Numbered from the stretch's first letter, positions 8,601 to 60,181 are shown. The stretch: DNA of 64,000 bases from Amoebophrya sp. A120 (GCA_905178155.1 CAJINV010000001.1:16120142-16184141), one strand, 5' to 3'. Translations and numbers: made by a program. Notes: generated by a model not told the origin, from the letters alone.

Positions 8601-9392
8601 ACACAGATGATGAAAGGGCCTAAAACAGGAGGCCGACCGCGTGCGGGACTGCCGAGTAAAGCTTCGTTCGAGCTCAGCGCGGAGCCACTGTCAGACAGGG
8701 ATCCCATCGACGCGTTTCTTCTCGAGAATACGGCTCCGCACGTCAGGCGTACTGAAGATTCGGAGAAACAGACACTGGAGGAATCTGCCTTCGCTACCCC
8801 TGCCACATCTGCCGGATTGTTTTCGACGCGAGGGCCGGGTCGGCCGCGCGCGCGGTCCTCAGTCCTAGAACGGAAGAAAATGGCTTCATCGCCAGAAAAG
8901 CTGCTGCCTTCGCGAGATGAGACACTGGCAGTTGCAAGAGGAGAGGCAACGTCTGTAGGAGAAGGGGCCGGGGCGCAGCACGTGGTTCAGGACAATCTTG
9001 ACTTTACTCTGATGGCCACTACCATCAACAAGAGAAAACCCGTGACGCCTGGGAGCGAGCTCGTCGAAAGTACCCTGAACGACAAACAGCCTTCTAGTTC
9101 ATCGGAGAAGCTGCAGTCGTCACGTCGGCTCCGTGCCAAGCCATCGGTAGGATCATCCGCAGTGCCGACATCAAAGGGCAAACGCAAGGTGAACGCGGCC
9201 ACCGGTCGTTTGCTGTTGGGATCTACCCTGCAAACTGCGCCTCGCAGCGGCGAGCAGGAATTTCGAGAAGCTTACCCCGACTCCGCCGTCATCACCCAGT
9301 CAGATCTTCTGTCCCTGCAGGGATTGGGGGGCGCAAGTCTCGCTGCAACACTCCCCGATCATAGAAGACGATCCACTAGGCCACGGTCATAG
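5687..9392 (+). CDS. SWIM + RING + ZZ-like + second RING E3 ubiquitin ligase (ZSWIM2/MEX-like); one non-canonical intron 7633-7960
   Basis: SWIM (CTC...WCVHICYVLLKV), RING (CPICFDDL...CTEGCKQAVHTACMYKW...CPLCR), ZZ-like (HPGMQCGFCKMRPIRGPLYGC...CEECF), second RING-like (CVFC...CGHWCH...CPKC). Confidence 0.8.
7629..7961 (+). mobile_element. MITE-like intron with ~95-bp imperfect terminal inverted repeats and ctgga direct repeat
   Basis: ctgga|TATCAAAGAGAAAAATCCCCCCTCCCCATATCGAA...TTCGATATGGGGAGGGGGGATTTTTCCTTTTGATA|ctgga. Excision of 328 nt joins CAG to VQM in frame. Confidence 0.85.
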
Positions 9393-21701: not shown

Positions 21702-22233
21702 ATGGCGAAGATGATGAAGATGATGTCCATGAAGGTAAAGCCGTATTTTCTTGTATAAATTGTTGAGAAGGACCAGCACTGCAGTCGTGTCGGTGATATC
21801 TTTGGGTTTGTCATTTTCGTCCTGTAGTTTTGAATTTGATGCACCGGCGGTGGTGGTCGTGGTTCAGACGAAAAAAAATCTCACCAACATTCAGATGGGC
21901 ATGAAGAAGATGGCCATGAAGAAATCCGTCATCGCACGGGGAAGGGTGCCGAATCGGCAGGCGATGGTCTTGCGGGGCACCAAATTAAAGACCAGCGGTG
22001 GGTTGACCAAGAGCGATTTGAAGAAGAACCCCCGCGGGCGTGTGGTTTCCATCAAGAAAAGCAACGCAGCCCGAAAGAAAGGGACTTTTCAAAAGATTTC
22101 GACTTGGGGAAAAGCGGTAAAGCAGGCCTACAGGGAGATGGGCCTGAAAGGTTTCGTGCCGGTGGGTGGGAAGAAATCCGCGCTGAGTCAGGCTTTGTAC
22201 CAGAGGGTAAAGCAAATTACCTCCGCGAAGTAA
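21702..22233 (+). CDS. DVNP: Dinoflagellate/viral nucleoprotein (DVNP); intron 21735-21894
   Basis: MK-rich N-terminus, then SVIARG...VLRGTKLKTSGGLTKSDLKKNPRGRVVSIKKS...W..AVKQA...GLKGFVPVGGK...GQ-type tail, the DVNP signature. Confidence 0.9.
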
Positions 22234-23134: not shown

Positions 23135-23734
23135 ATGTCGTCGATGAAGATTTCGGCCATGAAAATCGTATCGCCCATGAAAGTCTACGCATCGGCGATG
23201 AAGTTATCGTCGACGAAAATGTCCTCGATGAAGATGTCCGCAATGAAGGCATCGATGAAGGTAAGTGCCTTAAGATTAATTTCCTCCTGCTTACGACCTT
23301 GAACCATTCGCGCCCTTCATTGTGCAAATTTATTGGGACTGTGCAACAACATTTTTGATTTTGTGTGACGCTACCTCCCGAACATAACTCACATGCAGAT
23401 GGGCCTGAAGAAGATGGCCATGAAGAAGTCTACCGTTGCTCGCGGTCGCAATCGCCAAGCGGTCGTGTTTCACGGTCATAAACTCACGACCAGTGGAGGC
23501 TTGAAGAAGTCCGATCTGAAGAAGAACGCGCAGGGCAAGATTGTGTCGGTCAAAAAGTCCGCGGCCGCGAAGAAGAAAGCGACGTTTGCGAAAATTAGCT
23601 CCTGGGGCGCAAGCCTGGGGAAAGCGCGCAAGGAGATGGGCCTGAAGGGCTTCATTTGCTGCGGTGGGAAGACGGCTTTGGGACAGGCACTGCTGGCCCG
23701 AACGCGGGCAATCTACAAGCAGAGCACGCAGTAG
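23135..23734 (+). CDS. DVNP: Dinoflagellate/viral nucleoprotein (DVNP), second paralog; intron 23261-23398
   Basis: VFHGHKLTTSGGLKKSDLKKNAQGKIVSVKKS...ARKEMGLKGF..GGKTALGQALL. 42-codon xxMK-repeat first exon. Confidence 0.9.
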
Positions 23735-33321: not shown

Positions 33322-34800
33322 AGAGATCCGCTGCAGTGCAGTAGAGCCCGGGGGGTAGAAGTCGAGTATGGGTTCGGTATAAGATGTAGTAAAAAAACCC
33401 AATGTTGAAAATATTCGGCGGGGCGCTGGTGCAGCTTCAGGCATCGGAAGAAGTGGGTCGCTTTTTATTTCCATCTCGAACGGTTTTTTGCACAACGGGT
33501 TCATTAACGAATTTATGTTGGGAATTCATCACAAAACCAATAGTACATCCTGAGCGATCTTTTTATCAAAGGCAATTAGGTCAACAAACAGAAAAATTTG
33601 AATCGTCCAGATACATACGTAGCAACCAGTCTTTTATTAGTTTTACGTCCAGTAACAGTAGCAGGTCTTTTGTTCAAGCATGACAACTGCGACAAAAGGC
33701 AAATGCGATACTTAGGGTCAGAAGTGCAGTTGGGTAAGAGTCCGAAAAAGTTGCCGCAGGGCCGGAGAATAGCGGGTGAGATGTGAGTGACGTGGCCTGT
33801 TGATCTCCCTGTACCTGCTGCGTGCGCGTGTAGAAATTGATGTACAACGGATTCACAATTCACAGACAACCAGCCGTGTCGGTCACCCCTCAACTACGCC
33901 CGTGTACAATATGACTGAATAAAGATACAATTCCATTGCATGCGGTATCTATAGCGCGACCGTAACATACCGCCCAGATCGAGCAACGCAGCAACGTTGG
34001 TGTAGCGCGGTTGTTGGTGCAGAATCGTGTTTCACGTGCATGACCAGATCCAGATGCGAGATTGCATTGATTGAGATTGAAAAGACAAAAGAAATCTGAG
34101 GTGATCTAATATGAAATCGTGGGCGATTTACTCACGTCTGCTCGAACGTAAAAAAAAAAGATAAGATGAAAATCTAAATGCTTATCTTGACACAATAAAT
34201 GCAGATCCGCACGAAAGCAAAACCAAAAAAGGATGAACATGGATCATGCAACAGCTTCCTATCGGTATCGGTTCATGTGAAAGGGAAAATGCTGCTAACG
34301 GAAGATCCGCGGAATCATTTTTGTGGATACAGTGATGATTATTGTGCCTCGAAATCGTCCCAGAAAAGTATAAGACGAGTCCAAAGACGCGTAACTACCA
34401 AAAGAGGAAAGGTGATTAGCAAACGGTGATTATCAAAAAGACTACGTATTTCCGACGATTTGCACCTGCAGTAAAAATTTTCTTGAACGAGATAAGACTT
34501 TTCGAAAAATTAAGTGGCATAAGTTAGTACTAAAACAGATCATTTTCATTCAAATCCTGTACGCAACGGCGGAGAAATAAAATTTACATTATCATCAAAC
34601 AAAACTGCACTCCTACATTATCATCAAACAAAACTGAAGTAGAGCTCAAGGAGGCATCTCTATTTTTTAAAAACGAACCGACTTCGGGCTACACGGTCGC
34701 AGTCCTGTTATTTTTGAAACATTCGGGAGAGACGAAGATCAAGATATCATATATAAGGGTATCAAAATCCTATAATTAAAAAATTTACTACACAAGTGAG

Positions 34801-36870
34801 ATGAACAAGACCATCAAAATGAAACGCGTTTGTGTTGCCTTCACCGTTTTCGTGGCGTTGGCGGAGTGCGCGAGCCCGGGAAGTCCGTCTGGAGGGCGTC
34901 GCGCCCCCGCTCCTACTTACTATGATACAGATGTCGTGGCGTCATTGGCGCACGCGCAGAGCCCGCCGGTGCCGCCCACAGGAATTTTTTCGGGCGGCTA
35001 CCCATCGCCTCCGGGCACTCCGACCAGAGGTACTAGTCAAGGCAGCAGGCCGCCTTCGCTGCGACACAGACGCAGGACTCCGAGCCAGGGCAGACTGCCG
35101 CGCGGCACTCCGCCACAGAAAGATACCAAAGGAGCATCGTCATCTCGTTCGCCTCCACCCCGTGCTGCGCGGTTAACGTATGGCACCCCGCCACAGGCAC
35201 CTCAGATGACTACTCCCGATGCAAATGGGCGAAGTTTCCGCGACCCCCCGTCGGGACCAAACCGGCGAGCTGCGCAGCGCGCTGCGGACAACGCGGGGAG
35301 CCTTGAGCTGGCTCCCGTGAGGGCAGCTGCAGCGTTTTACGATTCGCATCCAGATTACTTTCTGGGAGAGGTCGCGCCGCTGTTCACCGGTTCGCAGTTC
35401 CAAGTACCGAGAGAGGATCTTCGGAAGTGCGTTCGGAAAACAGGAAACGACGTATTCAGAGGCTGGACTGCGTTCCTGGACCGCGTGGCGGAGGCGCGCT
35501 TGGAAGCTGGACTGCGTGGTTGTTTGCGGCTGGCGTTTCACAGATTTTGGATGGCGCGCTTGGAGTTAGAGTGGAGCGAAGAGCTACACGACTTCGCGAA
35601 GACGCTTGCGCATTCGAAGCTGCAGGCAAAGGTGTATAAGGTCGGTGACGCCGTCGCGCTGGTGCCAGCAGCAACAGCGCCTACGCGAGCAGAAGCCAAA
35701 TTTCATGACCAGGCAGTGAAGCTTGACTTGCGGCTCGCCGAGCCCGACATGACCTGGGAAAGCGTTGAGGCGGTTGTGGACGTGAAGAAACTGGAGGAAA
35801 GCGGTGCGCAACTGGTGTTCGATGCGTCGCAGCCTGACAAGCACACCCCATTTTTCGCGAAAAACGAGCCGCGCGTCTTTGGGGAGTGCGAGCCCTGGCT
35901 CGGTTTCATTTGGGATCCAAAAGTGAGGGCCAACAAATTTCACGAGACTTTTTACGAACGCGCGGAAAGGACACTGGTCCCGAAGGTCGCGGGCGTCTTT
36001 CGTGAAGTTGTGCGGGATGAGTATCGCGAAATACTTGGGGAGTATCCATTCAGAAGCGAGACTTTTCTCCAAACCTGGTTGACCGAGAACGAACCGGAAA
36101 ATGCATGGCCGCTGAGACATGGTTATGGACCGAAGACACAGTTGACGAAAGTGGCTCTCATGGCATTCGAGAAGACATGGCAGATGGCATCGAAAACCTT
36201 CGAGCTTCGGCGACTCCGGGCGCTCCCGTTTCTTGTGCGGAAGGCCTATCATGGCCGTTTCCAGCGGGAAAGCGCGGTCACGAACGAAGGCCTGCGCGAG
36301 AAGTGGCAGCCGGCCAATCTGGAAAGTCTGCACTCTGTTTGGCGCGATCATCTCACAAATCCGATCACATTGAAAAACCGCAAGGCGACGCTGATCGGCG
36401 CTGGCGAGGACGAGTGGTACCTTTGGGATCTGAACGCGAAAAGGCACTGGCAACACGAAGAAGGTGCAGCCTTAATGCAAGGCAGCCCGAATCACCGGAG
36501 GAAAATGCGAGATGGGTCCGCGTGTCGGCCGCAGGTCACCGACATGAATCTCGTGAAAATGGGTCTGGACGGGTCGCTTGTCGCGAACCGAACCCCTGAA
36601 CTTCGTAGTACGATGAAGATTTCGGCCCTACTGCGAGAACTTCAGGCGGTGCTATCTGGCGAAAAGCAATTTGTCGAGCTCGAGATGCCAAAATTGGACA
36701 GCGACGAGCACCAGGAGGAAGAGAGGAGTCGTGTGCAGGCAGCTCAAGCAAATCGAAATTTGGTCGCTGGTGCTCAACAAAATGCTATTCTCGCAACTCC
36801 CGGCGCCTTCGCTGCTGCCGCAGGTGCCAGGCCGCTTTTCGCCCTTCCGGCGGGGCTGGGGAGGGCATGA
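34801..36870 (+). CDS. Intronless putative secreted protein of unknown family (paralog A)
   Basis: Signal-peptide-like MKRVCVAFTVFVALAECA, a Pro/Ser/Thr/Arg-rich region, then a domain shared with 39951-42668. Confidence 0.8.
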   Translation: MNKTIKMKRVCVAFTVFVALAECASPGSPSGGRRAPAPTYYDTDVVASLAHAQSPPVPPTGIFSGGYPSPPGTPTRGTSQGSRPPSLRHRRRTPSQGRLPRGTPPQKDTKGASSSRSPPPRAARLTYGTPPQAPQMTTPDANGRSFRDPPSGPNRRAAQRAADNAGSLELAPVRAAAAFYDSHPDYFLGEVAPLFTGSQFQVPREDLRKCVRKTGNDVFRGWTAFLDRVAEARLEAGLRGCLRLAFHRFWMARLELEWSEELHDFAKTLAHSKLQAKVYKVGDAVALVPAATAPTRAEAKFHDQAVKLDLRLAEPDMTWESVEAVVDVKKLEESGAQLVFDASQPDKHTPFFAKNEPRVFGECEPWLGFIWDPKVRANKFHETFYERAERTLVPKVAGVFREVVRDEYREILGEYPFRSETFLQTWLTENEPENAWPLRHGYGPKTQLTKVALMAFEKTWQMASKTFELRRLRALPFLVRKAYHGRFQRESAVTNEGLREKWQPANLESLHSVWRDHLTNPITLKNRKATLIGAGEDEWYLWDLNAKRHWQHEEGAALMQGSPNHRRKMRDGSACRPQVTDMNLVKMGLDGSLVANRTPELRSTMKISALLRELQAVLSGEKQFVELEMPKLDSDEHQEEERSRVQAAQANRNLVAGAQQNAILATPGAFAAAAGARPLFALPAGLGRA

Positions 36871-37616
36871 ACCTCGCGGGAAGATTGATGCGTGAAACCA
36901 CTGATGCAACCGCGCAGGAGGATGTTGCGGCGCAGTCGCTCTATGTCTGAGCTGCGCCAGGATCTTTCTTTATACCGATTATTTGAGCTCGGAGCAGTAT
37001 CCGATCTATGGAACTTTTTGTGTGAGTGGTAAAAAAAAAGATTTATGAGGGGTATCTACATAATTTTCGTGCTCCGTCTCGCCCGCCTTCCGAAGAAAAT
37101 ATGAAGATCAGGTGGAGCATGACTAACGGTCGCAGGTAACCCAAAAACCTGTCGACTTTCTTAGGGCGTCCTATGTAAAAAGTACCTCTTTATTCGCTTT
37201 GGCAGAGCTTCAATTTAGTATCTTGAATTTTGGTGCTCTAACCACTGCAAAAAAAAGTCACTACAGGAGGGTTTAGCGATTTCGTGGCCGATCCTGGAGC
37301 TGCGCGTGCGTGGCTTCAGTTTCGAGCCCGAGTTGGGGGGCAGATAGACGCCCGCCACTCGATCATGCGAAGTCCGAATTTTCGAGTGATCTTACACAAA
37401 TGAAAGGCGAAAACATTCATTAAAATTTGCATTGCGCGAGGGAGAAAGATGAACAATTAGCTAGTACCTAGCTCAAGATTACTTCAGTAATGTGAACTTG
37501 TCTACTCTAGTAGAACTAGACATTCGCGAGCAAACCAGGCGTCCTGGTCCACGACTAGGCAACACTTTACACTGTATTATTTGTGCGGGGAGACCAAGGG
37601 AGAATGAGAGCCCCGG

Positions 37617-38929
37617 CTTGCTTGGTCGCGTTGTTCCTTGTTTGCTTTCGTTCTTTATTGCGCAGCAACCAGTCTCGGACTAGAGCCGTTGCTAGCATGC
37701 TCCTCAGATCAATGAGATCCATGAACTAGGTCACAGAACACCGGTAGGTGTAGGATGTAAATACAGGGGTCACACTAGTAGGATCACAGGGATCACACAG
37801 ACAGGACACCACTAGGCTGGTGAGGATGACACCAATGGAATCATGACAAACATGCACACAGTGCCAGAATGGCTTCTGGTCTTCGGGCCAGTAGCTGTAA
37901 GAATCAATTGCCCTGGAACTCCGTAGTACCTACTAGGTAGGTGCTTAGATAGTAACTCTGTTCTCTATCTTAGGACAGCATGCTAGTTCGCATGCCTCGT
38001 CCCTGACGCTTGACACGTCCACAGAGTTATGAGCCCAAGAAGTTCCCCTATTGGGAACGGGTAAGAACTACCAGCCGCCCCCACCTATCCCTGCATAAGA
38101 GTAGGGAATGAGCTCCCCAAGCTCGTGGCTGTAGTCGCCTCCTTGTGTGGCTAGTCCGCACCTGGAGAGCCATCAAAGCGCAAAGCGCTGGAAAGGGCAA
38201 AAGCCCACTCGAGTAGCGTCTGTCGATGACGTCCGCTGCTACGAGTGTGGAAGGCAAAAGTAAAAGTAGCAACACACACATGGCGGCGCAGCAGCGACGT
38301 CCAGGGTGTTGCAGTGCGTAAATGTTGCCGCAGCTATCGGTAGCTGCGCGCAACTCGAGCAGTCAGTGCCGGTGCAAGTAGCAGCAGCTACTCCAGCACA
38401 CAGCACAGCTCAAGCACCAAGTCCGGGGAGTCCCCCCGAACGCAAGAAGAACGAGATCCGTCCAGGATCTCGATCCAGGATGCAGCACAAGCTGTAAGGA
38501 GCGGCTGCAGATGCAGCTGCAGGCAGTTCAATACGCGGGTCACGTATATTGTGTTTTCTGCACTAGAGCGATTTGCTACTAGTTAGCTTGTTTGGGTTGC
38601 TTACCATTTCCAGTAGAAGTAGACTGGTTTGCTGTAAGAGCGAGGGCCCGTCGAGGTTCTCTAATTTGTTGATGCACAAGTAGCATTCAACGTCAATGCC
38701 CCCGGGTTCACGCACCCGGGCATGCGCAAGCTCATCGAGGGACGCCTCGCGCGCATAGATACACAGACAGGCCTCATTGCCTGCCGTGTATGTGGGTTCG
38801 GTTTGAGCAATTTACTTTGGTCAGGTATACCATCTTGCGGCTTCGCAAGATTTCCTGACAAGATTGCAACGCCAGCTGGGCATGCTCCGACTTGCTTGGT
38901 CGCGTTGTTCCTTGTTTGCTTTCGTTCTT
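37617..38929 (+). mobile_element. 1235-bp non-coding structured element (37656-38890) flanked by a perfect 39-bp direct repeat
   Basis: cttgcttggtcgcgttgttccttgtttgctttcgttctt at 37617-37655 and 38891-38929. The first ~463 nt are homologous to 56904-57371. Confidence 0.8.
37656..38118 (+). ncRNA. Candidate structured RNA core, copy 1
   Basis: Many stems are preserved between the two copies while loops vary. C(UUCG)G hairpin at 37876-37891. Loop 37953-37961 is complementary to 38021-38029 (pseudoknot). Confidence 0.55.
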
Positions 38930-39950
38930 GTCTCGGTGACTGATCTACGGGCGGTTAAAGCGCGGATGAAACTCAATCGGAATCGTCTCAAAGGCAGCAG
39001 CTCTAATATCCTGTAAAGATCCTACTTGAGTTCGGAAATCCCCTGAGAAAAAAAACGATCCCAGCAAGAGCTTCGAGCATGGAATCATTCGGATTCTAGT
39101 TGTCATTCTCCCTGAGACCAGATCCAGATCGATGCGAGCCCTTTCCCTGCGCCTGAAGTCACCACAGACAAACAAAAGATGAAAATGTACGAGTTCGGTA
39201 GAAATATAAATGAAGAAGGTAATGGATCTGGAATCGTAGACCCGATCAAAATAAGCAGGAGGTCCAAACCGCCGAGAGCGCTGAATAATCGTTCAAAATA
39301 AGATTTAGTAGCTAGAAGATACAACTTCAATTTCGGCTAATGCGTTGATGATGATGATGATGGCAATTTCTGCAATGACCCTCACAAAAATTTATTGATG
39401 AATTGGAGTGCGAAATCGGATTCCACCTGGATTGGTCGGTACTTTACTTTGCATGTGCGGCAAGAAAACGGTTTGACAGAAGTTCTTTGAATAAATCATG
39501 ATCATCTCCTTGTTGACAGTGCCTTGAGTCACTCCGCTTTAGACCTTCACCCAAATTACCAAACAGAAATCGCCTAATTGCAGAATTGCTACTTAGACTT
39601 TTCTAAGCTATTCGTATATTCTATTTTCTACCGAATTAGAAACGACAACTCTCCGCTGAAAGGCAAGAACAGCATCGATCGATTCGAAGACTAAAAATCG
39701 CTCCGTCTGACATTTAAAGCACTGCAATTTCAACAGCAATTAATTTGAACCTTCAACCTAGCGAGTATTCACGCCGGGTATATTAATTAACGACTCTTAG
39801 TAGTCTCAGAGTTCTTGTTGGTCCTTTTACTGCTCCACGTCCAATTTGATTCGTGATCACACTACTTGTTGGCGGTAGTACATTTCATACCTGAATAATC
39901 GTACTTTTTTAAGTAGACGTTGCTAGCATCTCAGGATCGACGGCAGAAAA

Positions 39951-42668
39951 ATGAAAGCTTTCGGGTTCTTTGGCGCCGCTCTAGTGTCGGTGGCCAACGG
40001 GGCCGCACCCTACTTTCATCCATCCGACTGGAACGTTGCATTTTCCTCGTCGCCAACAGGAGACTCGTCGGCGTCAGCAGGACCCTCCTCGTCCTACTTG
40101 GGTTCGGATACTCCTGCCGGATTCCAACCTGGGATACCGCTCGCTCCCACCAAAGAGCAGCCGCGTCGCCGCCGGCGGAGCAGCAGTTCCACCTCTTCCA
40201 GAAGTATTACGTCCAGGTCCCCGGCTCCACGCCGGACTTTCCCGAGTACCCCTCCCCAGACCCCGAGTAGTAAAAATGGCGTTGCACGTTGGCCGGCGAC
40301 GCCGACGCGGAACCAGGTTGCTCGGTCGCCGCAGCAGCCTTCCGGCCGAGCCGTGAGATTTGCAGCTTCATCTCGGACGCCATCTCCAAGCACGACAAGG
40401 GTCTTCGACGCCACAGGATCACCAGTAGGTCCGCCGCGGCAGAGCACGACCAAGACGGCGCGGGCGCTCAACTCTCCGGGATCGCCAGTTACTCCGCAGC
40501 AGACCAGATCCGGAACTGCGCGGGCATTCAACTCTGCGGGATCCCCAGTGGTGCCAGGTGCGCCGTCCTTTTTCTCTACGGGAAGGAGTTTACTTCCGCC
40601 ACAGACGCCCTTCGGACCCAGGCCAGAACCTCGGGTACCAGACACCCCTGGTGCTACAAATGACTCGCCTGGAGGCCTGGATCAGGTGGAAGAGGTAAAG
40701 GACTTCTACAATCGCCTGGCGGACCGGGATGACTACTTTCTTGGCAATCCACAGAACCCGAACGCTGTCAGCTTCACCGACGAACACCCTGAGCCTTTCC
40801 GCGTTGCAGCCGAGTACCAGATGCGAAAGTGTGTGAGGATGGTTCTTAAGGATGCCACTCACGAGTTGCTGTGGTTGCAGAAGCACAATGCCAGGTTTAG
40901 TCCGTTCAGCGTGCACGAGGAGGGAAGTCTCCACCAGAAGGGTAACGGGCCTGAGGTTTTATTCGAGCAGGAGCAGGAACGTAAGAGATCGGCGATCAGA
41001 AATCTAAAGAAGGGTTTGCAGGGCTGTGTGAGTCTGGTGCTGCACAAGTTCTGGCAGGCGCGTTTCCAGCTAGAGTGGAAGACAGAGATCTACAAGTTCG
41101 CGAAAACCCTGGCGAAGGAGGGGGGAGCAAAGGTGTACGAAAGCATTGTGACGACTAACAAAGAAGTGGGAGTTTCGCACTGCGCAGTGACCGGTAGGGA
41201 AATCCCAGTGTATCGTGAGATTCTGAAACTGACGCTGGTGCCGGCTGGCTCTTTTTTAGCGGACGCAGATCCGAAGAAAAACCACGCCGTCTCGATTGAG
41301 CTGCGGGATGAGGAGGACTATGCCACGTGGAAGAACATCCGCGACATCGAGAGTGAGGCCGCGTTTTTGAAGGAGTTCCAGACGGCCACGCCTGTTTTCG
41401 GACGATCGTCGGAACGCTCCGGCGCTGTCGGGCGGGGACCGGGCCGCACTCTCCTCGACGGGGAACCGCGGGCCTTCGGAAACTGTGAGTGGGCCGGAGG
41501 CGAGTCGAACGAAGGGCGCAAGGGCGGGAATTACATGAAGCTTCTCTACAACCCGGCTCTACAGGCCGTGACGAGATTCCTTCAAACCGAGTTTCTCGCC
41601 GTCGCAGAGGAATTTCGTACTGAGGTGCAGACTCTGGACGAACAAGATCTTCCCAAGCTGGAGACTCTGGAGACTCTGGACGAAGTACTAAGCTGGATTG
41701 AACACGTCCTCCTCAGACAGAGACGCATCAGGGGCGTGTTCGACCGGAAATGGTTGGTTGCCGCAAAGGCCTTCGAAGTGCGCCGTCTGCGCGCGCTTCC
41801 GCTTCTGTTGCGGAAAGCCTACCGAAATAGGAAACAGCCAAATGGAGTACCGGCGAATCTCGAACGGCATCTACATTGGAGAAAGTGGAACAGGGGTAAC
41901 ACGTTGGACACGGAAACTGCGTTCGACAGTGCAGACTACCAGAACTATCGGGTCCGGCGGCCACACCCGAACGGCTACAACGCGCAGACCGACAACGGTC
42001 GGCTTGGTAACCACTGGTTCTTGTGGGACCCTCGCCCGGCGGCGAAAGCCGCGCCGCTTCTTCTTCCTGCAATCGGAAATGCGGGTCCTTTTGCGGTTCC
42101 GGACGCTCCACTTGCTTGGGGAGTGGATTCGCTCCACGGAGATGCGACAGATCTGTACAGTGATAATTTGAACAGGGAGACAGGACTTACCCTCGCCACG
42201 CTCGGTCTACAGGACGATAATGACCTGGCCGCTTTCGTACGCGAGCTTTCTACGAACTCGCGAAGCGAGGAAGCGTCGGAAAGCAGTACAAGCGACGCAG
42301 TTGTTCTCCCCGATCGCCAGCCGATGGCGCCAGCCCCAGCTCCCCTGCAACCGATGGGATTCAGGTTCCACCTTCCCCCTTTCATGGGGGCGGGTCCTCC
42401 CGGTGCTGTTCCTTGGGTACTAGCAGCAGGTGACTTACCCCCACCTCCGCTCGTTGCTCCAGCCGGAGACGGGGAAGAGCAGCCCGGTGATATTGCACAT
42501 ATCTTCGGGGGTGGTGCAAACAACATGGCGGCCCTCCAGCAGTTTCTCGGCTTCAACAATCGACCTCCTCCGCCCGTGGCAGAAGCGGTAACTGCAGTGC
42601 CCGAAGAACAACTACTACCAGTTCAAGCGGAAGAAGGACCTGATGAAATTACTAACATACAACCTTGA
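39951..42668 (+). CDS. Intronless putative secreted protein of unknown family (paralog B)
   Basis: Signal-peptide-like MKAFGFFGAALVSVANGA, an S/T-P-rich N-terminus, and motif blocks shared with 34801-36870. Confidence 0.8.
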   Translation: MKAFGFFGAALVSVANGAAPYFHPSDWNVAFSSSPTGDSSASAGPSSSYLGSDTPAGFQPGIPLAPTKEQPRRRRRSSSSTSSRSITSRSPAPRRTFPSTPPQTPSSKNGVARWPATPTRNQVARSPQQPSGRAVRFAASSRTPSPSTTRVFDATGSPVGPPRQSTTKTARALNSPGSPVTPQQTRSGTARAFNSAGSPVVPGAPSFFSTGRSLLPPQTPFGPRPEPRVPDTPGATNDSPGGLDQVEEVKDFYNRLADRDDYFLGNPQNPNAVSFTDEHPEPFRVAAEYQMRKCVRMVLKDATHELLWLQKHNARFSPFSVHEEGSLHQKGNGPEVLFEQEQERKRSAIRNLKKGLQGCVSLVLHKFWQARFQLEWKTEIYKFAKTLAKEGGAKVYESIVTTNKEVGVSHCAVTGREIPVYREILKLTLVPAGSFLADADPKKNHAVSIELRDEEDYATWKNIRDIESEAAFLKEFQTATPVFGRSSERSGAVGRGPGRTLLDGEPRAFGNCEWAGGESNEGRKGGNYMKLLYNPALQAVTRFLQTEFLAVAEEFRTEVQTLDEQDLPKLETLETLDEVLSWIEHVLLRQRRIRGVFDRKWLVAAKAFEVRRLRALPLLLRKAYRNRKQPNGVPANLERHLHWRKWNRGNTLDTETAFDSADYQNYRVRRPHPNGYNAQTDNGRLGNHWFLWDPRPAAKAAPLLLPAIGNAGPFAVPDAPLAWGVDSLHGDATDLYSDNLNRETGLTLATLGLQDDNDLAAFVRELSTNSRSEEASESSTSDAVVLPDRQPMAPAPAPLQPMGFRFHLPPFMGAGPPGAVPWVLAAGDLPPPPLVAPAGDGEEQPGDIAHIFGGGANNMAALQQFLGFNNRPPPPVAEAVTAVPEEQLLPVQAEEGPDEITNIQP

Positions 42669-49360: not shown

Positions 49361-52300
49361 ATGAAGATGCATCCAATTCCAGAAACCGCGACTGACAGCG
49401 CTCTGCGTTCCGAAGTAAAGGCCCTCCAGAAGCGGCTCGAAAAAGCCCTTCAGGGGCAGCGCCAATCGTCTTACCGCCTCCGTACATACAACGAGCAGCA
49501 TGCGGAAAATCCGGAGTGCAGTTTGCAGAGCAATGTCTTTTCACCTGGCGAGGTGGTCCCATGCTGTTGGTGCAGAAGGCCGCAGGTGCTGATTGAGGCT
49601 GAGGACGACGAGCAGGGCGGCGACCGGGAGATGCCGGAACCACACAACAGCGACAGAGCGGGGGAAAAGGGGGGCTTCACACCCGAGGGTGTAGACCACG
49701 GTACGGTCCTTTCCGGAGAAAATTTCAACGACAACGACGGCAATGACACGGCGCGCACAGATCATGTCGAGGACGCTTGTTTGCGGAGTGTTTGGGTGCC
49801 CTATGCTGTCGATGGAGAGCCGATTCGCCCGGAGGACGTTGTGGAGCAGTTCGGCGTTCTTGGTGCCGCATCTGTAGTACCTTCCTCGGAGGACGAAGAC
49901 GTCGAAACCTCGTCGGAAATTGTGTTGCGACCAAAGTCGCGATTTGCGCATGTGGCGGTACTCTTTGGAGACAAGATTGAGTACCTCATGGGAGCACTGA
50001 TTCTCGGTTATTCCTTGAAGGATTCCCGCCACGACGTGGTGCTACTCTACACCTCCGACGTGCCAAAAGAGTCCTTGCGGTACCTTCGCTCGGTTTTTAC
50101 GTTCATACTGGAAGTCGATTACCTCACGGTGGGGAAAAGCGTTGCACCCAGACTCTACAAAAACGCGGAGCGCACGCGCTTCAAGGACGTCTTCACGAAG
50201 CTTCAAATATTCTGCTTGGATTGCTATGAGAAGGTACTACAACTTGCTTCGCTTTGACGTAGTAATATTGAGGCAGCGTTTATCCCACCATGTTTCATTT
50301 TGAGATCTTTACTCAGAGAAATCTCGTAGTACTAAAAAGAACTTCTGCTGCTCTCGTTAGTGCCGCGCATTCACTTAGGACCGCCAGGTTCATCTTTAGT
50401 TGCACTACATTTCCTAAGCTCAGGTTCTCTTTCTTGATTTGGACACGCTCGTGCGTGACGTCGCGGCAGTGGATGATCTGTTAGAGAACGGTTCTGCGCC
50501 CGCAGCTTTGCAAAGAGGGGACCCGGTGCTGCAAACGGTAAAAGACGGGCTTCCGAGTCACGAGACGGGCCGAATTCCGTATGAGGAATTCTGGAAAAAC
50601 TACGAGCGGAAGGTGTGGCCGGACGGGAAGCTGGAGAAGTTATACCCGTTCGAGCAGGCAAGCGGGATCAACGCGGGCGTGATGCTCATCCGGCCGTCTC
50701 GCTGGGTCTTTCAGCACATCTGCAACGAGATCTGGATCACGGACCACCCGGAGCACTTCGGCACGTGGATGCCTGAGCAAGAATACATAGGCAGGTACGT
50801 GGGAGGTTTGGATCTCAACCACATCGAACAGGTGCGTTTTTCCTTTGACACTGTACTTTAGGTCTAGCGATTCCGATTTCTTTGTTGAAACACGAGCTTC
50901 CCGGAGGGAATCGAATTTTCTCGTTGACACCGGCACTATGTAGTTAGCGACCGACATAGTTCTTGTAGTGTGGTGCTGCTGTGGTCTCCGAAAAAGAATG
51001 ATTTTTGGTTTTAAAATGCTCCTACATGTTGAAAAAACACATGTAGATTTACCGAGAGCGAGAAGAGCTACGGAAGAGGGAATGCGTCGGGATGTCAAGC
51101 CTTCGCTGGACCAAACTGATACCTGGGACTCGTCGTCGTCGCGACCGAGTGCTGAATCCTGATGATGTCGATACCACCGCTTCAGAACGCAACGAGGAGG
51201 CGCTGGTTCGGCTACGAGCGCGGCTAACCGCTTCTGTTGGTGCTGGCGGAGCGGTCCACCATGCGAGCTTTGCGATTGCATCGGCCCGAAGCAGGGAAAG
51301 TCCCAGACGCGCTTCAGCATCCGTGCACCAACGCGGCTGGGCGAATTTGAGTCCGCGATTCAATTTTGAGATTGACAAGGAGATCCGCATCCCTTTCGAC
51401 TTCTCGCAGAACCACCGGTTGCTCCAGCAGGAGGCCGAAAAGATTGCGGTATTCCACTACTCCGGGACCAGCTGCAAGCCGTGGACGCCGTTTTTGGATT
51501 ATTTCTACTCCGGCGATATTACCCAAAAGCCGCGCAGCTTTGACGTACTAATTCAAGCGGTCAAGTCGAAGTTTTACAACGCTGACACCGCCCGCGACCG
51601 GGTGGTACCGTGGGCGCAGTCGCAGCTGGAGACGTCGCACGTAGGGACGGACCCGACCGCCGTCACTTTCATCGCGAGTACCGTGACAGCCTGGATTGGC
51701 GAACTCTGCCGTGCGCTTTCCTGGGAATGCCACGGCGGGTATCAATCCTCCTGGTGGCAGCAGGCAGGGGGCGCCACAAGCAGTTTCCAGGGTGTAGAAA
51801 AGCATCGTGTTGACTCGGAAGTATCTCAAGAAAAAGTTCGGGAGGGCGAAGTTACAGCCGGCGCTGCCTGGCAGTCCGCGGCTTCGCACGGGAACAAGAT
51901 TTCCGTGCGTAAGGACGAAGCTGCGGACGCACAGTCAAAGGCCGTTCTCGAAGAACCTGTAGCAGGACGAGATCACGTAGCGACCGTTCATCCGCAGCGA
52001 GACGGGCACGCTTGCGACGAAGAGATGGAAGTGGGGTCGCAGCCACCGGCTGAGAACGTTTCTTGTAGGAGCATCGGGAGGACGGCGGGGAGTGTAGAAG
52101 TCGACACGAATGATCAAAGTTCGTCTACTTTTGAAGAAAATCAAAAGTTGTCTACCACTCGCCCTCGCCAGCAAGGAAAAGCGCACAACACAACGGATGG
52201 AGCACGTACGAATCGTGTCAACTCGGAATCTTCAGGTGGAAGTCGAACGGTGGTAAAGCACAAGAAGAAAACCAAAAAGGCCTCGCGACAGCAGCGGGGT

Positions 52301-53704
52301 AGCGGAGAAGCGAACGACTCGTCAGGCCGCTCGAAATCAGAGGACGGTCACCGCCCGCCAACGCAGAAACGGAGAATACGTGATGGCGGAACCCGCGAAC
52401 AATCCCCACTGTCAGTTGCTGAGATGAGAGATGCTGCAACGAGTAGCGGACTACGTTCACAAGAGCAGAAAGGAGACCGCCTGTCGGCGGGGCCACGAGG
52501 AAGTGGGAGAAGCGAAGCCTCCGTAGGTCTGCGCACGGAGGTCGTTTTCGAAGACGATTTTCCGTTTTTCATGTCGAGCGAAGATCCGGAAGAACGCCGG
52601 CGTACGCTGAAGCGGTTGAAAGCGGTGAAAAGCGACCTGCAAGACTTCCTGGAGAAAGTAGAAAAGTTGGATGTGCTTCTGAACCGACAGAGTGCCGCCA
52701 TCCGCGCTTATTGCATTACCCAATCCTACGGAAAGTATGCGGATGTCCTGTCCTCCATGCCATCTGGCGTGCGACGCTCCTACTTTGGAGTTGGTGCAAC
52801 CGCGCCCTGCAGCTTGCCCGGTTTCGTGCAAGGATGCGTCGGGCTGTTCCGGGCACTTCTTGAGCTTGAGCACGAGTCATGTCTTGCGAGAAGCGCAGAA
52901 GACGGAAGCGCAGCCCGCCAGGGGGTGCTAAGGTGGTTTCGCAAGACCCACGGTGAGGGGCGATACCGCGTACTGCCGGATACGGACCAGGGGGCGGCAC
53001 AAATTGCGCTTTTCTACATTCGCAGTCTGGTCGGCATGTCGCTGTTTGCCTCAGTGCGGAAGCTTCTAGCGAGAGCCCGGAAGTGGATGTCATCGGCGCC
53101 GGAACAAAAGAGCCTCGACCAGTTGCTGCTTGGAACGGATGGCGAGTCAGAATTGCATCGTCTAGTTGGTTTCGAGCGCTACGATCTGTCCCTTCCTTCG
53201 CTAGAGCCTCCCAGTGGCGACGCCGATTTTTACCGTCCTGACGTCCAAGCCATAAAAAACTTTTTGCGCTCGCTAGATCATTCACGTCTCGCTCTCGTCA
53301 CAGATTGGCGCGACGGTGTGACAGGGCTGACAGCGCTTGAATGGACCGAGGGCCTGACGAAGAAGTTTCGTGACCAACTTCAGAGCTGCACCTCTGAGCT
53401 GGCACGGACGAAACTACAAACGGTTCTTGAGGCCTACAGTGCTATATCCGAGCAAAGGCTTCTCGCAGGTGTGCGGCGTGCTGACGCCGCGACCTCGTGC
53501 GAACCGCCTCGAAGAACCAGTCATCCTTCTCCAATTCGCCGTTCCTGCAAAGACCAGGTAAAGTCTGGTCGCGCCGGCAAGATTGATCCGCAAGAGCCAC
53601 TACGAAGCAGAAAAAACCGTGCACCCTCCTCGCAAGGAAATTGCAGTGGGGAAAGAACAAGAATAAAAAACCCCTCTAAAAAAGTGCGGGATGTTGAAAA
53701 CTAG
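49361..53704 (+). CDS. GT8 (glycogenin-like) glycosyltransferase with long insertions; start uncertain; introns ~50233-50421 and ~50832-51047
   Basis: FKDVFTKLQIFCLDCYEKVLFLDLDTLV (DxD), GINAGVMLIRPS, EQEYI, FHYSGTSCKPW. Confidence 0.8.
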
Positions 53705-55232: not shown

Positions 55233-56903
55233 AGCGCGAGACGAATGCCACGTCGAGGTGTCCTGCATTGACGCTGCTCCAGGGCCGTGGTAGTTCTAGC
55301 AAAGGCAATTCTATGAAGAACAGATAAGATACGAACGACGTCCACGTCAGCGTCGCAACCTGTAAGCAAGCAAACTGTGAGTGGCTCTTTAGAGAACAGT
55401 GTGGTTAATGTACTTGCTAAGAAAATTTGTATTATTGCGAGAATGATTTTTTCTCCGGGCGCGTTTCTGCCTTCGTATCTGAAGGAATACAGAGGTTTCT
55501 CCTAATTGCGAACTCATGCAGTGCATGGGGAGAACGTGGAGAGCAAAAAAACATAGTTGTGCAATGGCTGAATTTCCATTGAATAACAGATATATATAGG
55601 ATCATGCGACGAAATAAAAGGTTGAACGTGCATGGTGCAGATCCCGCTGTGGGGCGCACTCTTCGTCTCGCCGATCTGCGTGCTGTGCTGCTCAGTTGGA
55701 ACCCGGCCGCCCGGAAGAAGCAGCAACGCCCGCTTTTTCCTTGTAAGTAGACAGGCCGCTGTGTCCTTGCAGCGTAGCTGCTTTCCCTTTTCTTTCGCTT
55801 TTTTGCCAGAGAAACCCCAGCCAGATAGCAGTGAAAGCTGCCTCCTTTGTCGTACAGAAAACGCCTTCATATCTGCTTTTCCAGAGGCGGGCAGATCCTG
55901 ACCAAGCCAAGCAAGGGCGCCGCTTTCAAACTTCAAGAAAATAGCCTGTTGCTGATTGCTGCTCAAGCCAGAATCGAGATACTCCAAAAGCGCAGCTTTC
56001 CGAATCCAAGAGAAAGTAGGAAAGCCATGCGCCCCACCGGGCATCGCTGGCCCTTTCTCGAGCATTTCCAAAAGTAAGTGCCCCCCGCCATGCCCAAGGG
56101 AAAAACAAAAACATAAACAGGGAAGAACATAAACAAAGCGGCTACGACATTCCCTGGTCTGTTCTCCAAATCGCTTGCGTTTCACCTGCTGCTCGCGGCA
56201 ACCTCAGGCGCGAACAAGCGAAACAAGCCGCGGCCCCCTCGGTTTTTGAAAAACTGCGTGCGGTTTTTCTTTGGGCCAGGCAAGGCGGGAGTCGGAATTG
56301 CCATCCACTCCATCGCTTTTCTTTCCTATTCCCAGAGCGAAGTTTGCTTGCTTTCACCTGGCAGGACTAGCTAGAACTATCGCACACAGCGACCACGGGC
56401 GCCCTTGTTTCTTTTCGGCCCGTCATCCGATAAGGGTAGCCGACAGAAGAAGCTGAAGCAGCGGGCGGCGTTCCGAGGTAACCGGCCGGAAAAGAAATGC
56501 GCCCGCTGGTTCACTGAGCCGAATGGCCGGCAGCGGGGCGGAGTAGAAAGCCAAAAGCACAAGCAACAAAGGGAAGGCCTGTTCCTTTCTACCTTTTTGC
56601 GGCGGCAGCGGCGCGGCTTGTTGCCTCTCGGTCTTTTCAAACAAGTGTTGATCTTTTTGCTTTTTCGATTTCGGCCAAACAAGCCTATAGCGCAGCGCTT
56701 TTCTTCGCCCGCGTTGCCTGCCCCTCCTATTTTCTGTAGCCCAATTACCGCCCTCGTGCGTTTCTTTTGCCCAGTTATACCCACCGCCTTGAGCCCTGTT
56801 GTTCTATTTGTATGCGTAAATTCCCGCGCCGTTGTGCCTCCACGGCGGCGCGAGTGAGGTATACTCTTAATCTCGCCGATCTGCGTGCTGTGCTGCTCAG
56901 TTG

Positions 56904-57371
56904 TATTGCGCAGCAACCAGACTCGGACTAGAGCAGTTGCTAGCATGCTCCCTAGATCAATGAGATCCATGAATAGGTCAAAGCACACCCATAGGTGTAG
57001 GATGTCAATACAGGGGTCACACCAGTAGGATCATGAGGATCACACACAGGGCACCACTACGATGGTGGTGATGACGACACCAATGGAATGACGTGAACAA
57101 TGTACACAGTGCCAAGATGGCTCCTGGTCGTAGTGCCAGTAGCCTGATGAATCAATAGCCCTTAACTCTGCAGTAGCACCTACATTACTAGGTTGCTTAG
57201 ATGGTGACTCTGTTCTCTATCTTAGGACAGCATGCTAGTGAGCATGCCTCGTCCCTGACGCTTGACACGTCCACAGAGTTATGAGCCCAAGTAGTTCCCC
57301 TATTGGGAACGGGTAAGAACTACTAGCCAACCCCTTCCTATCCCTGCAGAAGAGTAGGGAATGAGCTCCCC
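56904..57371 (+). ncRNA. Candidate structured RNA core, copy 2
   Basis: Collinear homolog of 37656-38118, starting with the identical tattgcgcagcaaccag immediately after the direct repeat. Confidence 0.55.
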
Positions 57372-57653
57372 CAGAAGAGTAGGGAATGAGCTCCCCCAGC
57401 TAGTTGAGAATGAGCGTCTCCATTTCTCAACTTCAGCCGCTTGCTGTTTTCCGTTTTCTCGGTTTTTCTTATGGTGGAACACCATAGCGCTTTTATCAGC
57501 AGGGGAAGGGGAGTAGATGTAGGCTACCGCTGCCCCAGACATGGGAGCGCGCGGAATTTACAAGCCTAAGAATACATTACTCTTTCCTGTTTGGGCCGGA
57601 ATTACTCTTTCCTGTCTGGGAGCGCGCGGAATTACTCTTTCCTGTTTGGGCCT
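57348..57653. repeat. Short tandem duplications inside the element
   Basis: agaagagtagggaatgagctccccc x2, attactctttcctgt x3, gggagcgcgcggaatt x2. Confidence 0.85.
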
Positions 57654-60181
57654 CTCGTCCGCGAACTGCAATGCTGGGAACCCTCCGATCGGCTCTTCCT
57701 AGTCTTGCAGTTCGCGTGCATCAGCGGCAAATATGTCTGGGTTTGGAACGTTGCGGGACATGTTGGAAATAAGTCCGAGCCAGGTCTTTTATGCATGTAG
57801 GCGGCACTCTCTGTCTCGCCTGCCCTGTCATGCGGAGTCGCAGTCGGCCCCTCCGTTTAGGATATCTCAGTCTAATTATGCTGCCCGTCCGGATGCTGGC
57901 TATGAGATGGGTGAGGTTTTGTTCAAGATACCTCCTTCGTTCCTGGGAAAGAACAATGCGGCCAATCGAGCAGCAGGAGTTCTTTTAATTGAATTTGGCG
58001 AAACTGCAGGCGGGATCACGCAAGTTGATTCCACTAACTTGATTCCATTTCATAACGTGAGCCCATAAACGTGATTCGGTCGCAAACGCGATCCCACTAA
58101 CGTGATCCCATTAGTAAACGCGATTCCAAAAATGTTAAAACGTGATACGGGTGCTTTCCCTTAATCTCGCCGATCTGCGTGCTGTGCTGCTCAGTTGGTT
58201 CCGTACAGACTCGAATGACGCAGAATACGACTGTTATAAAGTCCGCAGCTGAAGTCGGCCGCGTCTTCCGTAAAGAATTCGTATCGTACATACACAATAT
58301 TTCTTCTGTGTGACTCTTGGATGGGGCGCACTCTTCTTTATTCTATCGGCGTTCGCCCATTCGTCCTCATCGTACGCCAGTCTCGTGCATAAAATAATTC
58401 GTCCTGCTGTATGTAGATGTGCATGTGTCGTACTAGGTCAAGGTCAAGGTCTTTCCCTTAGCGACGTCTTTCGGTAGATGTTACTGGCGTCGCACGACTG
58501 GACGTTTTTTCTCGCATTACTCGACAACAGCGTTTTTTCCACCACCCTTTTTCCCTGTAGATAAGTGAATAGAAACACTTTACGAAGTGCTCCTGTAAGT
58601 AGAAAAACAACGCGATAAAAGGCCACCACCAACAAATAGCAATCCAATATTTTCAGCTTTGATAAATTTTGTTTTTTTTTTCAATTTCAGTATACAATTT
58701 CCAATTTCCCGCCGTCACCGTGTACATGCTTACAAAATTACATTTTCTTGCATTTTAGATAGCGCCATATCCTCTTGTGCAACCAAAGATCTGCTTGATA
58801 CTTTTTTTGATACATTTCTGTGATAGATCCTTTTTGATATTTTTTACATTAGAAGTGTTTCGCTCGCCTTTCTTCCCGCTTGTTTAGCCTTCACCGTGCC
58901 GGCTCTGATTCGGCAAATTTTTTGGTCATCCTTTTGCAGCAGCAGCGCAATACAAGTGATCCGCAAATAAATAGTTTGAAGGTTCTCATTGAAATCGATC
59001 CGCAATTATAAAACAAAAAATCGAAGTCGACCAGTCGGAGGCGAAAAAAGATCCTCTGAAGAATTCTTGTCCGCACCACGGCCAGTTCAAAATTGAGAAA
59101 GGTCTGTGGAGTGTTGGGTTCAAAAAATTTTCAGCACTCCACTAGAATAGCGCACGAACCAACTACCAGAACCACGAAGAGACAGCTTTACCGCTTGAAC
59201 TGTCCCTCTTCAAAAAACGCACCTCCAGGAGTAGAAGACTCTCTTCAATAGGGCAAATAATAGGTCTTGTTAGCTTCATGATCGGTGCGCGAAGCTATCA
59301 CTAGCGCTAAGATATTATCTCTTCTTGGGAATATAGAGCTACAACTTGCAGGACTAGCCTCATCGTCAATATACCAAAAATACAACAACAAAAACAAGGC
59401 AACAACAACATCAACAACACGACATCATCCAGTAGTACTTACAGTTTATTCGACGTATTGTCTAGCGCCAGGGGTAGATGTATTTTTTTACCAAGCTCAT
59501 CAACCAAGTAAGAAAGTACTTTAACTTTTCTCAGTTTTAATTTCGACTCCGGAACAGCACGGGTAATAAGACACAGACGGCAGGTTTAACCGAAGCAGTT
59601 TATTTGTCATTCAGAACGTGATTGTATTTGTTTTTGTACAATAACCATAAACCATCTACAATTTTTTCGAGACTGGTAGAGGCGTCTTTCTTCCGACTTG
59701 CCCAGCTGAGAAGTCTTTTGCTTTACCGTCTCAAGGCGTCAACCATCTTCAGTACGTATTGTTGTGTATAGTGTCCCGAAACTGTTTGATACCGCGGCTA
59801 CTCAATAAAAGGTTCTCAACAGTAGAGTAAAAAGATAAAGAAGCAGAACACTCAGGACATCGTCAACAAATATCAGACCGATTCGAGCAGACAGAAACGG
59901 ACTTTGGTAAGAGCAACAAGACGTTAGGATCTCTTATTCCTCGCACGTTTGTTGCTCAAGTATCCATTGAATCCGAAATAGCAAAAAAGTTCCTTTTGAG
60001 TAAGTTTGCTAAAAACATCAGCCACAAAGTTACTACTGCGGAACAACTTGAAACAATATCAGCAATATTTTCCGCTACAAGCAAGGAGGACTAACTAACC
60101 CCTTAATTATTTTGAAGAAATACGTTACAGCGTACAGTTTGTTGCCGTGGCATCAAACACTACTACTACTCCATCAGCATT

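Follow-up and report, generated by a model that had tools for sequence, protein, structure and literature searches.

How did two apparently non-coding stretches of about 1.2 kb, alike at one end and different at the other, come to lie each between a pair of long direct repeats in the genome of Amoebophrya sp. A120? Both lie in a 64,000-nt stretch (GCA_905178155.1 CAJINV010000001.1:16120142-16184141; hereafter the window, to the whole of which all positions refer), where a first-pass annotation had read them as a non-autonomous mobile element, or an integrated structured RNA replicon, made of a constant head and a variable cargo.

Two elements share one end and lie between unrelated direct repeats

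On re-check, the two elements had the coordinates and lengths originally given (e1, 37656-38890, 1235 nt; e2, 56904-58159, 1256 nt). Each was bracketed by a perfect repeat, of 39 nt in e1 and of 38 nt in e2 (Table 1), and the same 17-mer opened both immediately after the left repeat, as had been claimed. The shared end, previously put at about 465 nt, spans 466 nt with 86.1% identity over 475 columns (E 3e-152). The tails are as dissimilar as was first stated, with a best local score of 20 against a mean of 21 and a maximum of 31 in 200 shuffles, and in a sensitive search of e1 against the 64-kb window the e2 head was the sole match. The lengths are nearly equal, since e2 measures 1231 nt once its private 25-nt duplication is removed (4-21 nt from the 1235 nt of e1).

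At spacings of 200-5000 nt, the window contains 15 exact repeats of at least 20 nt, of which four are accounted for by the flanking repeats and a third copy of that of e2, and the other 11 by two gene-like duplications; a chance origin of the arrangement of repeats and elements is excluded. No LTR, TIR or poly(A) was found in either element, in agreement with the first reading; the best terminal direct or inverted match was 9 nt, the direct one being present in e1 only, with none common to both elements.

The two repeats are unrelated in sequence and both begin with CTT, whereas their earlier description as pyrimidine/G-rich suits only that of e1, which has no A and 21 T and is T-rich at its head-side end; the e2 repeat is close to even in composition (4 A, 11 C, 10 G, 13 T). 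Both targets are directly followed by GT, giving a CTT...GT pattern that was noticed post hoc and in two cases. In the window, CTT occupies 1.5% of positions and GT stands at +38/39 in 110 of the 936 CTT sites. The two bases preceding the head are TT in e1 and TG in e2.

The left junction of e1 recurred without differences in a second sample (contig X3 record 10, 37576-37717); on the right side, a contig of run X1 (record 6) covered the end of the tail and the first 30 nt of the right repeat. As the X1 contigs around e1 stop inside its 39-nt repeat, at 37646 and 38900, they cannot reveal an empty allele; an element-free allele of e1 or e2 was not observed as such, but only a paralogous site with a single repeat (55649-55699). 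The flanking repeats are likely to be target-site duplications, because they differ between the two sites, end exactly at the head and, in the case of e2, have an older single-repeat counterpart without the element.

Table 1. Positions of the two elements, their flanking repeats and associated features in the window.
Feature	Position	Strand	Remarks
Older third copy of the e2 target	55661..55699		33-34 nt identical; 44/50 nt with upstream context; paralogous single-copy site
Left 39-bp direct repeat of e1 (likely target-site duplication)	37617..37655		T-rich and free of A; starts with CTT
Conserved end (head) of e1	37656..38121	- (putative)	Likely 3' end; 16-29 times flank depth; fixed outer boundary
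Structured, most conserved half of the head	37916..38121		Predicted multi-branch stem and four hairpins; 94% block at 37942-38082; folds on both strands
Body of e1	38122..38890	- (putative)	Hairpin-rich, non-coding family sequence; depth 13 to about 2 times flank
Right 39-bp repeat of e1	38891..38929		Preceding 7 nt match 5/7 of the 7 nt before the left copy; followed by GT
Left 38-bp direct repeat of e2	56866..56903		Begins CTT
Conserved end (head) of e2	56904..57374	- (putative)	86% identical to the e1 head
25-nt tandem duplication	57347..57399		Where e2 leaves family sequence; private to e2; X1 depth 26.7, as for single-copy sequence
e2-specific segment	57400..58159		Unrelated to the e1 body; degenerate tandem arrays at 57576-57652 and 58027-58111; structured in its first half only
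111-aa ORF, deposited gene model	57733..58068	+	Cluster of one, no credible homologue, codon score -0.02
Right 38-bp repeat of e2	58160..58197		Followed by GT

The elements belong to a dispersed family with one fixed and one apparently ragged end

Sequencing runs were compared with positions 36900-39900, thus with the e1 region only, at 80% likeness, which gave 106 matching records in X1, 21 in X3, three in X8 and none in X9. X3 is presumed to be an RNA run, and X1 possibly derives from the same sample that the window was assembled from; the raw RNA run X9 yielded no reads even on the flanks and constitutes no test. The summed depth of X1 contigs, about 25 on the flanks, serves as a rough guide and not as a copy number. 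Relative to the flank, it was 29, 20, 16, 27 and 19 over the head in successive 101-nt bins starting at 37607, and in the next bins, over the e1 tail, it was 13, 9, 8, 4, 1.8, 2.1, 1.8 and 2.4 (38112 to 38919).

Among the pieces listed (19 of 137), at least four points of departure from e1 were found. They lie at about 38123, where e2 diverges, at 38211, as far as which a marine metagenome piece tracks e1, at 38286, where a 519-nt contig leaves it, and at 38757, reached with gaps by a diverged contig of 938 nt. At the opposite end, the head adjoins unrelated flanks at 37654 in at least three more X1 contigs (among the loose ends listed, 14 of 48), these contigs passing from it straight into long flanks, with a median of 255 loose letters. 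Since these contigs run unbroken from head to flank, whereas those of e1 break in the repeat, perfect repeats of at least 31 nt probably do not flank every copy, a reading of how such contigs break in the 14 of 48 loose ends listed. The first-pass annotation had staked its proposal on other copies having both flanking repeats and a fixed boundary; the boundary is fixed, and the long repeats are probably not on every copy.

e1 and e2 are therefore not isolated: both are copies of a dispersed, multi-copy, non-coding repeat family. One end of it, the head, is fixed and the other appears ragged; the gradient and the four departure points fit this description, yet divergence to less than 80% could mimic it. 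The tail of e1 had been taken for variable cargo behind a constant head. It is not specific to its locus but itself repeated, at about 13 falling to 2 times the flank, and because the depth declines while copies leave at staggered points, this supposed cargo is family sequence.

Neither proteins nor known RNA families are recognised in the elements

No coding signal was detected in any frame, so the statement that the elements hold no credible ORF stands, except that a 111-aa gene model has been deposited on the e2 tail. Codon-use scores reached at most 0.11 in the element frames, compared with 0.15-0.38 in 10 held-out long ORFs. Pfam searches gave nothing below E 0.03 for the 12 element frames read through stops and nothing below E 0.07 for 17 ORFs in or near the elements, and homologue searches with two e1 ORFs gave no matches. 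Two peptides, a zinc-knuckle-like one in a plus frame of e1 and a zinc-finger-like one in a minus frame (38566-38811), were considered as possible gag or LINE remnants and rejected; both lie in hairpins and have no Pfam match, homologue or coding codon use. RT-like families were not matched by any of the 22 window ORFs scanned.

With Rfam at E values up to 10, no ribozyme, tRNA, 5S or 7SL match was obtained for the elements; the window as a whole gave no Rfam match, and ARAGORN predicted no tRNA genes. The HDV-like motif had no matches on the four element strands, and no hammerhead core is common to both heads, the single core-like word being on the minus strand of e1 and not kept in e2. A candidate resemblance to U2 snRNA in part of the head, and one to a tRNA primer site in the bases beside it, were dropped as they had no Rfam or ARAGORN support.

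Outside the host, two 28-nt core motifs had no matches in JGI metagenome contigs and a 28-nt core motif had none in viral contigs. Five viral-contig matches to the 17-mer were attributed to chance, as none extends past 21 nt. The 17-nt head motif was also absent from the supplementary files of PMC12130899 that were searched (12 of 14).

The predicted structure is conserved but partial

The description of the head as structured proved right for its inner 206 nt (z -1.8 to -4.3) and wrong for its outer 260 nt (z -0.2 to -0.6), and folding of the whole head was unremarkable (z -1.2 to -2.0). The e1 tail folded at least as strongly as the inner head (z -2.6 to -5.9), whereas that of e2 did so in its first half (z -3.4/-4.5) and not in its second (about 0). 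Nine control regions gave z values of -2.2 to +4.1 with 25 shuffles each, the lowest coming from a region that contains another repeat. Folding predictions gave a succession of local hairpins, branched and not rod-like, in which GNRA/UUNG hairpins were not enriched (plus strand: two in e1, none in e2; background mean 1.5).

Differences between the two heads (53 over 462 aligned positions) were depleted in predicted pairs. The paired fraction was 0.40 against 0.57 on the plus strand (p 0.0008), and 0.42 against 0.61 on the minus strand (p 0.0002); a circular-shift test for avoidance of pairs gave p values of 0.005-0.053. Solid compensatory changes between the heads were not found. A candidate compensatory change in the e1 tail was rejected when the variants listed there were examined (40 of 144; 39 within the element, the one outside being dropped): in confident pairs, two kept and nine broke the pairing on each strand, and none was compensatory. 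The modelled structure is partial yet real, in the form of conserved local hairpins.

As to the strand, head differences in confident pairs still allowed pairing in five of nine cases on the plus strand and in two of nine on the minus strand, and two-sequence consensus folds had energies of -61.7 (plus) and -64.4 (minus) kcal/mol. In the X1 records, A/C exchanges numbered 36 and T/G exchanges 12. Folding models leave the strand undecided and lean weakly to plus.

e2 switches to a specific segment, and its target has an older copy

At the point where e2 departs from the family, the 25-nt tandem duplication is a possible scar of re-priming or of a template jump; oligo(T), which would be expected for a jump to the 3' end of an mRNA, is absent there. 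The gene model deposited further along the tail is probably spurious, and the fact that its protein forms a cluster of one weakly suggests that the e2 tail is rare. Its hits P0002 and P0003, among 1.84 billion proteins, were discarded as tandem-repeat proteins for which weak matches sum, with single alignments of 24-30 bits.

At 55649-55699 there is a single repeat without an element; the same two positions distinguish it from each e2 repeat. The sequence upstream of this third copy matches the left flank of e2 at eight of 12 positions.

Between this copy and the left e2 repeat lies a segment of 1.17 kb (55700-56853) that has no head and no Pfam match and terminates in a 12-bp hairpin (56825-56852); the repeat spacings are 1205, 1274 and 1294 nt. 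An earlier insertion at this site is a possible origin. Separately, a 9-nt motif just before the third repeat copy (55652) recurs at 58324, about 125 nt past e2, and nowhere else in the window.

Target-primed reverse transcription from the minus strand is the preferred explanation

With one end fixed and the other apparently ragged, with long duplications and with no terminal repeats, the elements bear the marks of target-primed reverse transcription (TPRT). On balance, e1 and e2 are probably non-autonomous non-LTR retroposons of the minus strand, with the head likely being the 3' end and e2 likely a template-jump chimera, a reading in which we infer the partner, the strand, the order of nicks and the jump. 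Because TPRT copies the 3' end first, that end should be the most abundant and the most precise, which is why the head is assigned to the 3' end on the minus strand. Of the original proposals, that of a non-autonomous mobile element with long target duplications is upheld by the multi-copy family, by the fixed boundary with other flanks in at least three contigs and by the lack of an ORF. That of a constant head with variable cargo does not hold for e1, as its tail belongs to the family, and may hold for e2; the depth gradient makes the head more likely to be a conserved 3' end.

The following course of events would account for the elements. An RNA of the minus strand, with its end at 37656/56904 and no poly(A) tail, would be bound through its 3' few hundred nt by the RT/endonuclease of a LINE or Penelope-like partner. 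This enzyme would nick the plus strand just before GT and prime cDNA there, and as priming would occur at the fixed RNA end, every copy would open with the same 17-mer. Synthesis would then halt or jump at variable points, leaving the depth gradient; in e2, a slip back of 25 nt would have been followed by the copying of another template, or else e2 may represent a second subfamily with a common 3' end. Cleavage of the second strand would follow at the CTT end, 38-39 nt from the first nick, with the long duplication resulting from fill-in.

The junctions bear on these steps. The minus-strand end is A-rich in four of five junctions, since in at least three contigs the alignment starts 2 nt ahead of the head and takes in the TT of e1; apart from this short A-rich end, no poly(A) or simple-repeat 3' tail was found. 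The A-rich end meets a T-rich target in e1, and the e2 junction has none. At its far junction, e1 has extra homology with the target at five of seven positions.

Comparable behaviour is described for several groups: non-LTR elements have precise 3' and variable 5' boundaries (PMC4640811), Penelope-like elements are frequently 5'-truncated and have common 3' ends (PMC8557442), microhomology at L1 5' junctions is commoner in truncated than in full-length copies (PMC2912911), and reports on R2/R1 describe jumps of template onto unrelated RNAs as well as non-autonomous derivatives whose 3' end is recognised (PMC3414825). Reported duplication lengths are 14 bp for SIDEs (PMC3414825), 20 bp for Utopia (PMC4640811), 22 bp for EhSINE1 (PMC1635306), and 126 bp and a median of 900 bp for R9 and Dualen, respectively (PMC9977147). 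Duplications of 38-39 bp are long, yet within the non-LTR range, between 14-22 and 126-900 bp. Non-LTR retrotransposons have been reported in Amoebophrya genomes (PMC7789003).

Several points speak against the preferred reading. No partner was found among the 22 window ORFs scanned, and the gradient could reflect subfamilies that have diverged past the 80% cut-off. Two lengths within 4-21 nt of each other are not what random truncation and a random template jump would be expected to give. Finally, the pairing of five against two of nine differences, the A/C excess and the e2 gene model lean weakly to an RNA of the plus strand.

Alternative explanations

These last hints would be natural in an element of the plus strand, with a conserved 5' head comprising an internal promoter and a structured leader, and with length-conserved 3' bodies, diverged or exchanged, inserted at full length. 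Such an element would resemble the trypanosome ingi/RIME/SIDER retroposons or an LTR-plus-leader piece mobilised in trans, and the succession of 260 unstructured nt, 206 structured nt and a hairpin-rich body recalls the U3/R-U5/leader architecture. It would account for the near-equal lengths (1235 and 1231/1256 nt), for the plus-strand gene model on the e2 tail and for the G-U-compatible changes (5/9 versus 2/9), but the strand test comprises nine pairs per side, and the consensus folds do not favour plus (-61.7 against -64.4 kcal/mol on minus). With neither poly(A) nor a common 3' end for an RT to grip, at least four departure points where two or three tail types would be expected, and no HDV-like match at the start of the head, we consider this alternative unlikely. 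In its LTR form it also faces the lack of a second LTR and duplications of 38-39 nt instead of the 4-6 bp that integrases make.

A precise end, an imprecise end that drags flanking sequence along and variable duplications would also be produced by a non-autonomous HUH/Rep single-stranded DNA transposon of the Replitron or Helitron type. Replitron-1/N1 has a fixed left end, a fuzzy right end derived from donor flank and variable duplications, Replitron-N1 being a 910-bp non-autonomous partner (PMC10288648), and the hairpins of e1 and e2 fold equally on both strands, as DNA hairpins would. What makes this very unlikely is that no short terminal direct repeat is common to both elements (the best, of 9 nt, is in e1 only) and that TT and TG, not RG, precede the head. 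Moreover, passages of PMC10288648 place the Replitron protein in no TSAR lineage outside stramenopiles, describe the fuzzy ends as short stretches and state that Helitrons generally make no duplication.

The near-equal lengths could instead reflect a cargo-capturing element with a length ruler, which we hold to be about as improbable as a DNA transposon. Its end of about 470 nt would recruit a CTT...GT cutter with a 38-39-nt stagger and copy about 1.2 kb of any sequence. Unrelated host sequence would be packaged behind the same end, and the head-less segment at 55700-56853, between older target copies, would be an earlier product.

No dedicated endonuclease would be required if pieces of another repeat, such as an LTR element, had been copied from the same end into staggered breaks as repair patches, the direct repeats arising by fill-in. 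The extra homology at the far junction of e1, the scar-like 25-nt duplication followed by unrelated sequence in e2, the earlier local duplication of the e2 target and the seeming absence of long perfect repeats from some copies would all suit such an origin. It is nevertheless highly improbable, as e1 and e2 share the boundary base, the junctions of at least three more contigs lie no more than 2 nt from it, and two independent staggers of 38 and 39 nt, both CTT...GT (a pattern noticed post hoc), are unlikely without a specific enzyme.

The integrated self-replicating RNA of the first-pass annotation (a retrozyme, or a viroid-like or Obelisk-like circle) is scarcely credible and was left unsupported: a non-coding, hairpin-rich sequence of about 1.2 kb with head-like contigs in X3, the run guessed to be RNA, is what it would predict, but the fold is a branched hairpin chain and no rod, terminal redundancy is absent, there is no conserved hammerhead core, HDV-like match (four of four strands) or Rfam ribozyme, all junctions use one fixed end and not circular permutations, and the 28-nt core motif has no match in viral contigs.

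Comparison with known elements

Returning to the minus-strand retroposon, the family works in the manner of non-autonomous elements that accompany stringent LINEs or Penelope-like elements, yet has the full set of defining features of none of these families. R2/R1 SIDEs share with e1 and e2 the lack of an ORF and a conserved, recognised end, and jump to unrelated RNA (PMC3414825); EhSINE1 of Entamoeba is likewise ORF-less and dispersed, with a duplication of 22 bp (PMC1635306). In contrast to R2, SIDEs and EhSINE1 as there described, no 5' ribozyme was found in e1 and e2, which lie outside rDNA and have duplications of 38-39 bp, not 14 or 22. The Penelope-like Chlamys-N and MRC1 show 5' truncation and likeness to the 3' end of a partner and occur in protists (PMC8557442, PMC9977147), and the Naiads of the same group are described as hammerhead-less, as are e1 and e2. 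The pseudo-LTR, conserved hammerhead and microsatellite target reported for Penelope-like elements are lacking here, as are partial tandems beyond the 25 nt of e2. The 30-40-bp 'tail' described for them is an extension of one end, whereas the repeats of e1 and e2 are perfect, on both sides and site-specific.

Compared with a SINE proper, e1 and e2 have no Pol III head derived from tRNA, 5S or 7SL (ARAGORN 0; Rfam none at E up to 10), and compared with LTR elements, TRIMs or retrozymes, the head occurs once per element and the duplications are of 38-39 nt, not 4-6 bp. A long target duplication is the likeness to the CRE/SLACS/CZAR group, in which target duplications extend to tens of bp. These elements encode an RT and a restriction-like endonuclease, whereas none of the 12 frames of e1 and e2 had a Pfam match below E 0.03. 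They are described as inserting in spliced-leader genes (PMC1635306) or telomeres (PMC12857005), whereas the targets of e1 and e2 are unrelated and intergenic. R9 and the Dualen LINEs are TPRT elements that make even longer duplications (126 bp and a median of 900 bp) but are autonomous as reported (PMC9977147).

Replitron-N1 is alike in being of about 0.9 kb and non-autonomous, with one precise and one fuzzy end and variable duplications, but its terminal direct repeats of 6 bp and its RG target have no counterpart in e1 or e2, and passages of the same source report no Replitrons from alveolates (PMC10288648). The introners of Amoebophrya are intronic and mostly have terminal inverted repeats, with duplications of 2-11 bp in the Amoebophrya rows seen (PMC12130899); e1 and e2 differ from introners and MITEs in being intergenic and without inverted ends. 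They come from the same host group, whose repeats passages of PMC7789003 describe as mostly unclassified.

The literature searched, with Repbase and Dfam outside that search, contained no description of the family, and a word search of the supplement of PMC7789003 gave no match, its Fig. S4, a repeat classification that may bear on the family, lying beyond this search. The family is apparently unnamed; its broad kind is already known. In these early-branching dinoflagellate parasites, where most repeats are reported as unclassified (PMC7789003), duplications of 38-39 bp suggest that an enzyme cutting with an unusually wide stagger, and possibly preferring CTT...GT, has been active recently; the conserved head offers a direct probe for its identification. 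If e2 is chimeric, unrelated sequence is being shuffled through a compact genome by the family, giving rise to spurious gene models. Should lengths and staggers be fixed genome-wide, the mechanism would be without a described parallel; otherwise, it is a curation case of an unnamed non-autonomous retroposon.

Genomic context and other features of the window

The window is eukaryotic in content: Pfam matches were obtained for seven of the 22 plus-strand ORFs scanned (IFT122 pieces, a ThiF/E1 enzyme and a methyltransferase), and the longest ORFs of the window are on the plus strand. One-directional gene clusters and introners are reported for Amoebophrya (PMC7789003), and the window fits both. 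Both elements are intergenic; around e1, X3 contigs end at 37572 and resume at 39525.

Long plus-strand ORFs (500-900 aa), coding-like in codon use and matching no Pfam family, lie at 34780-36870, 39927-42668, 51047-53704, 5672-9392 and 11769-13334. In the 3' region of the first of these there is a separate short repeat (37286-37378), with an X1 depth of 1159 at 37327 and at least 18 X1 contigs, which is also present in X3. Its predicted plus-strand fold has an energy of -48.7 kcal/mol for 101 nt; it occurs once in the window, gave no Rfam match and is possibly a small SINE- or MITE-like family.

Inverted repeats were seen at two other places. At 7634-7956, an intron-like gap between two long ORFs is introner-like, with terminal inverted repeats of 35 nt (94%), and at 2889-3195 a 62-nt inverted repeat (82%) surrounds 183 nt in a MITE- or introner-like arrangement. 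Directly after the latter lies a gene-like tandem duplication (3199-3946 and 4331-5074) with 90.6% identity over 754 nt and a period of about 1130 nt. An older coding-like duplication at 21887-22174 and 23391-23672 has 68% identity over 297 nt and a period of about 1500 nt.
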